Positions 1 to 1,192 of a DNA stretch of 1,577 nt are shown here, one piece after another. The position numbers and the translations under genes are program-made. Each line of letters opens with the position of its first letter. Positions within the stretch are counted from its first letter, which is position 1. This stretch comes from Escherichia coli (lineage in GTDB: Bacteria > Pseudomonadota > Gammaproteobacteria > Enterobacterales > Enterobacteriaceae): the NCBI RefSeq assembly GCF_003334355.1, contig NZ_QOWP01000084.1. One strand, written 5' to 3'. Below the pieces are notes generated by a model that saw only the letters and a list, made by a program, of their open reading frames with translations, did not search any database and was not told the origin of the DNA.

Positions 1-1192
1 GGTTTATGACCCGACGGTACAGTTTGAGTTCTGGTTCTCGGAAAAACGGATTGCGGATATCAGGCAGGTTGAAACCACAGCCCGCTATCTTGGCACGGCG
101 CTGTACTGGATAGCTGCCAGTATCAATATCAGGCCGGGCCATGATTATTATTTTTACGTTCGTAGTGTGAACACCGTTGGCAAATCGGCATTCGTGGAGG
201 CTGTCGGTCGGGCGAGCGATGATGCGGAAGGTTACCTGGATTTTTTCAAAGGCAAGATAACCGAATCTCATCTCGGCAAGGAGTTGCTGGAAAAAGTCGA
301 CCTGACGGAGGATAACGCCAGCAGACTGGATGAGTTTTCGAAAGAGTGGAAGGATGCCAACGATAAATGGAATGCCATGTGGGCTGTCAAAATTGAGCAG
401 ACCAAAGACGGCAAACATTATGTCGCGGGTATTGGCCTCAGCATGGAGGATACAGAGGAAGGCAAACTGAGTCAGTTTCTGGTTGCCGCCAATCGTATCG
501 CGTTTATTGACCCGGCAAACGGGAATGAAACGCCGATGTTTGTGGCGCAGGGCAACCAGATATTCATGAACGACGTGTTCCTGAAACGCCTGACGGCCCC
601 CACCATTACCAGTGGTGGAAATCCACCGGCATTTTCCCTGACACCGGACGGAAAGCTGACTGCTAAAAATGCGGATATCAGTGGCAGTGTGAATGCGAAC
701 TCCGGGACGCTCAACAACGTCACGATTAATGAGAACTGTCAGATTAAGGGGAAACTGTCAGCCAATCAGATTGAAGGCGATATTGTCAAAACGGTCAGCA
801 AGTCTTTCCCCCGCACGAACAGTTATGCCAGTGGCACCATCACGGTAAGAATCAGTGATGATCAGAAATTTGACCGGCAGGTCATGATACCGCCAGTGTT
901 ATTCCGCGGTGGTAAGCATGAGAATTTCAACAGTAATAACCAACAGTCATACTGGTATTCAACCTGCCGGTTAAGAGTGACCCGCAATGGTCAGGAGATT
1001 TTTAATCAGTCCACGACGGATGCTCAGGGCGTATTTTCCTCAGTTATAGATATGCCTGCCGGACAGGGGACGCTGACACTGACATTCACCGTATCTTCAT
1101 CAGGAGCGAATAACTGGACACCAACAACCAGTATCAGCGATCTGCTGGTTGTGGTGATGAAAAAATCCACAGCAGGTATCAGTATCAGCTGA
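1..1192 (+). CDS. J: Tail-tip host-specificity protein J (central tail fibre), C-terminal 396 codons plus stop; 5'-partial, gene begins upstream of the window
   Basis: The reading frame is open from base 2 (first codon gtt at 2-4) to the TGA at 1190-1192, with no in-frame stop upstream of the GTG at 167 that the ORF track used as a start. The translation ([99 protein letters not shown]...) matches my recollection of the C-terminal part of lambda gpJ. The position immediately upstream of lom is the lambda gene order. Identification rests on recalled homology, not a search. Confidence 0.9.

Follow-up and report, generated by a model that had tools for sequence, protein, structure and literature searches.

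The receptor-binding domain of the phage lambda tail-tip protein gpJ binds LamB. In gpJ, FNIII-2 is followed by a helical shaft, a straight fibre, and the receptor-binding domain (PMC11101478). A related protein, A8 gpJ (Brodel et al. 2024; PDB 9wca, 9wcb), is an engineered chimera in which the C-terminus of a natural E. coli gpJ was fused to lambda J at residue 964, and it delivers via OmpC instead of LamB (PMC11338833). The stretch of DNA analysed here (1,577 nucleotides from E. coli, hereafter the window) carries a gene of the same kind. Its 396-codon open reading frame is the lambda-type tail-tip gene J, which encodes the tip attachment or central tail fibre protein: in a BLASTP comparison with lambda J (608 bits), window residues 1-395 are collinear with residues 737-1131 at 75% identity over 400 columns, and the 396 codons correspond end to end to lambda J residues 737-1132. 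The feature is thus an ordinary, already known gene cut by the edge of a contig, and the shorter reading frame that can be drawn inside it is an ordinary annotation artefact.

Gene J at the edge of a contig

Window positions 2-1192 translate into 396 sense codons and end in one stop codon (TGA, 1190-1192), which bears out an earlier note on this DNA in its reading that the frame is free of stops from base 2 onward and that J is open to the edge of the window. Translations of related genes (...TPHLA/VYDPT) show that base 1 belongs to the preceding codon, Ala736, as its third base. In hmmscan, the product matches the NCBIfam profile NF049904 (lambda_TipJ) at profile positions 736-1163 (E = 4.5e-205); the score of 683.5 bits falls below the curated cut-off of 1,950 because of the contig edge, only 396 of approx. 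1,132 residues being present in the window, and this shortfall does not show divergence. Pfam domains follow one another as they do in J, namely Ig_J_second, Phage_Tail_Tip, and Ig_GpJ_C (Table 1). The first of these is matched by residues 2-82 at model positions 24-104 of 105 (E = 1.4e-29), and the window accordingly begins approx. 23 residues into FNIII-2. The window product also matches the solved lambda J chains 8iyk and 8xcj.

Table 1. Features of the window, with coordinates, strand and the basis of each assignment
Feature	Position	Strand	Basis
3' 35% of gene J, codons 737-1132 and TGA	1..1192	+	open frame, lambda J alignment, NF049904
C-terminal three quarters of FNIII-2	5..247	+	PF24489 Ig_J_second
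GTG, internal Val792	167..169	+	first start-like codon, inside Ig_J_second
Central straight fibre segment, Phage_Tail_Tip	329..709	+	PF09327, residues 110-236, E = 4.1e-34
C-terminal Ig-like receptor-binding domain, non-lambda variant	815..1189	+	PF12421 Ig_GpJ_C, residues 272-396, E = 2e-36
Putative terminator-like hairpin, 8 pairs, loop of 4, then T run	1210..1239	+	consensus scan
lom Shine-Dalgarno GAGAGG, 5 nt before ATG 1259	1248..1253	+	anti-Shine-Dalgarno pairing, -7.1 kcal/mol
First 106 codons of lom, Ail/Lom outer-membrane beta-barrel protein	1259..1577	+	phrog_108

Exact-protein look-up and sequence identity show that the window (1-1577) takes in all 1,577 bp of contig QOWP01000084.1 in assembly GCA_003334355.1. 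It is not an excerpt from a longer record, and its edges, the left one inside J and the right one inside lom, are those of the contig. J runs off the left end, and the upstream extension that the earlier note proposed as a check is absent from the QOWP01000084.1 record. In the public annotation of this contig, the gene is already entered as 1-1192, partial, with a 396-residue product.

Three other assemblies (Logan SRR14099367, GCA_050204525.1, and GCA_018567625.1) have contigs that begin within 3 bases of window base 1 and encode an identical 396-residue partial product. Window base 1 itself is polymorphic across J genes, being G, T, or C. The common starting point suggests a recurrent branch in the assembly graph, at which two prophage copies of J converge.

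All close matches to the window come from E. coli or E. coli phages. A scan of IMG/VR with an exact pattern (window bases 36-95) retrieved six loci, all of them from different phages and none identical to the window, the closest having 45 mismatches in 1,577 bases, and neither the JGI metagenome contigs nor the GTDB representative genomes contained an exact match to window bases 21-140. At base 55 the window has G (GCG for GCT, a synonymous alanine codon), where all J-lom loci that match the whole window have T or C; this G is common only to the mosaic IMG/VR loci, which had been fetched by an exact pattern containing it.

Downstream of J, the window product of lom matches positions 1-106 of 199 of the phrog_108 Lom family (E = 5.5e-54); Pfam Ail_Lom is recorded on the called lom gene, and all relatives carry the Lom annotation. 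Between the J stop codon and the ribosome-binding site of lom lies the terminator-like hairpin, GGGCGTCAGAAATGACGCCT followed by TTTTTATT. No PHROG family matches either of the two minus-strand reading frames, 1196-1522 (108 aa) and 472-723 (83 aa), and the single promoter-like site found in the window (minus strand, 171-144) is within chance, 1.9 such sites being expected.

GTG 167 as an internal codon

The ORF list for the window gives 167..1192 (341 codons) because GTG 167-169, codon 56 of the frame, is the first ATG, GTG, or TTG in it. The earlier note regarded this start as an artefact of the ORF track and warned that a 341-residue protein annotated from position 167 would be a false short gene. 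Both views are upheld, since J homology continues before the GTG, no Shine-Dalgarno sequence precedes it, it lies in the middle of a domain, and the frame to which it belongs is that of codons 737-1132 of J. GTG 167 is an internal valine codon, not a translation start.

It should be noted that 55 stop-free codons would be met by chance in approx. 7% of cases ((61/64)^55), so the open frame is in itself weak evidence and the case rests on homology. Residues 1-55 taken alone match the lambda_TipJ profile at positions 736-790 (E = 1.2e-29) and differ from lambda J residues 737-791 at five positions. They are the same string as the upstream translation that the earlier note took to continue J, which this match confirms. 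Moreover, the 26 sites within 2-166 that vary among ten related loci are distributed over the three codon positions as 4/4/18, which indicates that this segment evolves as coding sequence in the frame of J.

A different reading would make GTG 167 a genuine internal start, from which a separate 341-residue C-terminal product (shaft, fibre, and receptor-binding domain) is made. Nothing speaks positively for such a product beyond the existence of the reading frame, its appearance among the called genes of remnant prophages (see below), and the presence in PHROGs of families made of J fragments, such as phrog_26429, which begins at window residue 53. Pairing with the anti-Shine-Dalgarno sequence over the 18 nt upstream of GTG 167 amounts to +0.6 kcal/mol, weaker than the window mean of -2.8 kcal/mol and to be compared with -7.1 kcal/mol for lom. 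The codon also falls within the fold spanned by Ig_J_second, so that the product would begin with a broken domain; no domain boundary of the kind an independent gene start might have is found there, and the sequence on its upstream side evolves as coding in the same frame. A separate product from this codon is therefore highly unlikely, and GTG 167 is best left as Val792 of J.

PHROGs holds further families that correspond to J fragments, phrog_9413 starting from window residue 148 and phrog_6232 from residue 326. In addition, a 35-residue out-of-frame reading frame (6-113, plus strand, frame 3) overlaps J and has a match at the C-terminus of phrog_12398 (E = 2.4e-5), a family that probably arose from frameshifted annotations of J.

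Full-length genes and prophage remnants

The complete genomes and phages closest to the window are 99.8-97% identical to it. Strain Ec1119 (gpJ WP_175067939.1) has 3 mismatches in 1,577 bases (99.8%) and 21EVA has 6, while E. coli NDM1 is 99.1% identical and Escherichia phage 2H10 (LR595862), with 17 mismatches, is 98.9% identical over 1,577 bases. In all four, J measures 3,399 nt (1,132 codons), as in lambda, and its start lies 2,207 nt upstream of where window base 1 falls. This agrees exactly with the earlier prediction of a start approx. 2.2 kb upstream. The N-terminal baseplate-hub domains (J residues 1-736) are present in the closest relatives, whose genes are arranged in the order tape measure, M, L, K, I, J, lom, stf, and tfa, and the window shows J and then lom at 1259; the spacing between these two genes in Ec1119 and phage 2H10 is identical to that in the window.

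It is reasonable to expect, from such relatives, that the source genome very probably contains a full-length J. The contig begins inside J of a lambda-like prophage and ends inside the next gene, lom. It encodes the distal central tail fibre, from the last part of FNIII-2 through the helical shaft and the beta-prism fibre to the receptor-binding domain. The missing 736 codons are most probably located on a different contig of GCA_003334355.1, with the start of the gene 2,207 bases upstream.

Nonetheless, J also occurs in truncated form, and the window might stem from a lambdoid prophage that has become defective: only a 3' remnant of J would remain, its 5' part having been deleted or replaced shortly upstream of the contig edge, and no functional J would be left. 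Gene callers have annotated the exact 341-residue protein started from the GTG on many contigs, which fall into 45 blocks of the assembly collection, and in every case the surroundings are those of a defective prophage that runs trkG, ParB-like gene, J remnant, lom, stf, and tfa. At these trkG-type loci, J homology sets in 154 nt before window base 1, where it adjoins a fragment of a P22-type capsid gene; in-frame TAA codons stand at -178 and -190, and there are no in-frame starts before GTG 167. Gene callers use GTG 167 in the remnants because it is the first start available after the stop, and PGAP labels the trkG-type remnant as a pseudogene with a missing N-terminus. One such remnant, HRR23_RS15490 of E. 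coli 2018-10-1CC (AP021894.1), is 99.0% identical to the window over its whole length and has the same GTG-started 341-residue reading frame. A second type of remnant is found in strain TUM9812 (CP128926.1) as a 558-codon 'tail tip domain-containing protein'. Both of the truncation points seen are upstream of the window, that is, beyond the contig edge. Differences in the J part (1-1192) cannot separate an intact gene from a remnant, since the window differs by one base from intact Ec1119 and by two from the trkG-type remnant.

Three lines of evidence favour a full-length gene over a remnant. Among 5,426 complete E. coli genomes, just 2 had the capsid-fragment/J junction, compared with 1,220 complete E. 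coli records, O157:H7 strains included, whose receptor-binding type matches that of the window at 99% identity or more. Truncation was also rare in a sample of 20 evenly spaced complete-genome matches with at least 98.7% identity to window positions 720-1258: 11 were named 'gpJ:', a name that requires a full-length score, 6 were checked and measured 3,399-3,483 nt, 1 was truncated, and 2 were not checked, so that J was truncated in 1 of the 18 resolved matches, or approx. 5% (about 1 in 20) of the sampled complete genomes. Finally, the lom part of the window is nearer to the versions of intact prophages, with 2 differences from Ec1119 and 4 from 21EVA, compared with 11 sites at which the lom SNP pattern of loci of the HRR23_RS15490 type departs from it. 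The window's lom hence does not match the type of the remnant lineage, although the mosaic nature of these phages makes the comparison weak as evidence. Taken together, the origin of the window from a remnant appears unlikely, and even at a remnant locus, coding sequence homologous to J does not begin at GTG 167. We consider it very probable that a single explanation covers all of these features, namely a J gene cut by the contig edge, with GTG 167 internal, both of which the window shows directly, and with the rest of J elsewhere in the assembly, as its relatives suggest.

The remnants themselves call for a few remarks. The trkG-type defective prophage is widespread, and several of its loci lie between ybhC-like and ybhB/bioA host genes, a position that looks like the lambda attachment region. 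In TUM9812, the 5' half of J has given way to sodC, a superoxide dismutase cargo gene of opposite orientation, and the remnant follows immediately downstream of it. The Rac prophage protein YnaA of K-12 (b1368, 342 residues) was considered as the same J fragment and rejected: BLASTP detected no similarity (E = 4.8), and YnaA is recorded as a tape-measure-domain protein, not as J. One could also imagine that remnant prophages retaining the 3' part of J with lom, stf, and tfa make the GTG-167 product as a free OmpC-binding protein and that the window comes from such an element. Such a 341-residue OmpC binder could, for example, block the receptor against superinfecting phages; that this applies here seems very improbable.

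For annotation, these results mean that the 341-residue protein should not be called from QOWP01000084.1 and that the feature should be entered as a 5'-partial J gene. The GTG-started reading frame circulates in databases via remnant prophages, as do small PHROG families of J fragments, and recognizing it as a J fragment avoids its treatment as a distinct protein family.

Receptor-binding type and likeness to A8 and lambda gpJ

The chain 'A8 gpJ 713' of PDB 9wca is identical to the window product from approx. J residue 865 to the end, the whole receptor-binding domain included, whereas in FNIII-2 and the shaft it has lambda residues where the window differs. Given this identity to a protein that has been tested, the window's J is probably an OmpC-using variant. 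Assignment to the OmpC-using 'A8' type, which is already characterized, helps to predict host range.

The comparison with lambda J itself shows a protein of two parts. Over the first 240 window residues, identity to lambda J is approx. 96%, whereas the last approx. 155 residues (from residue 241), which make up the receptor-binding domain, are only approx. 43% identical, with one indel of four residues and one of five. In its domain order, its C-terminal end, and the gene that follows it, lom, the window is nonetheless the same as lambda gpJ (P03749; NF049904; PDB 8IYK, 8XCJ).
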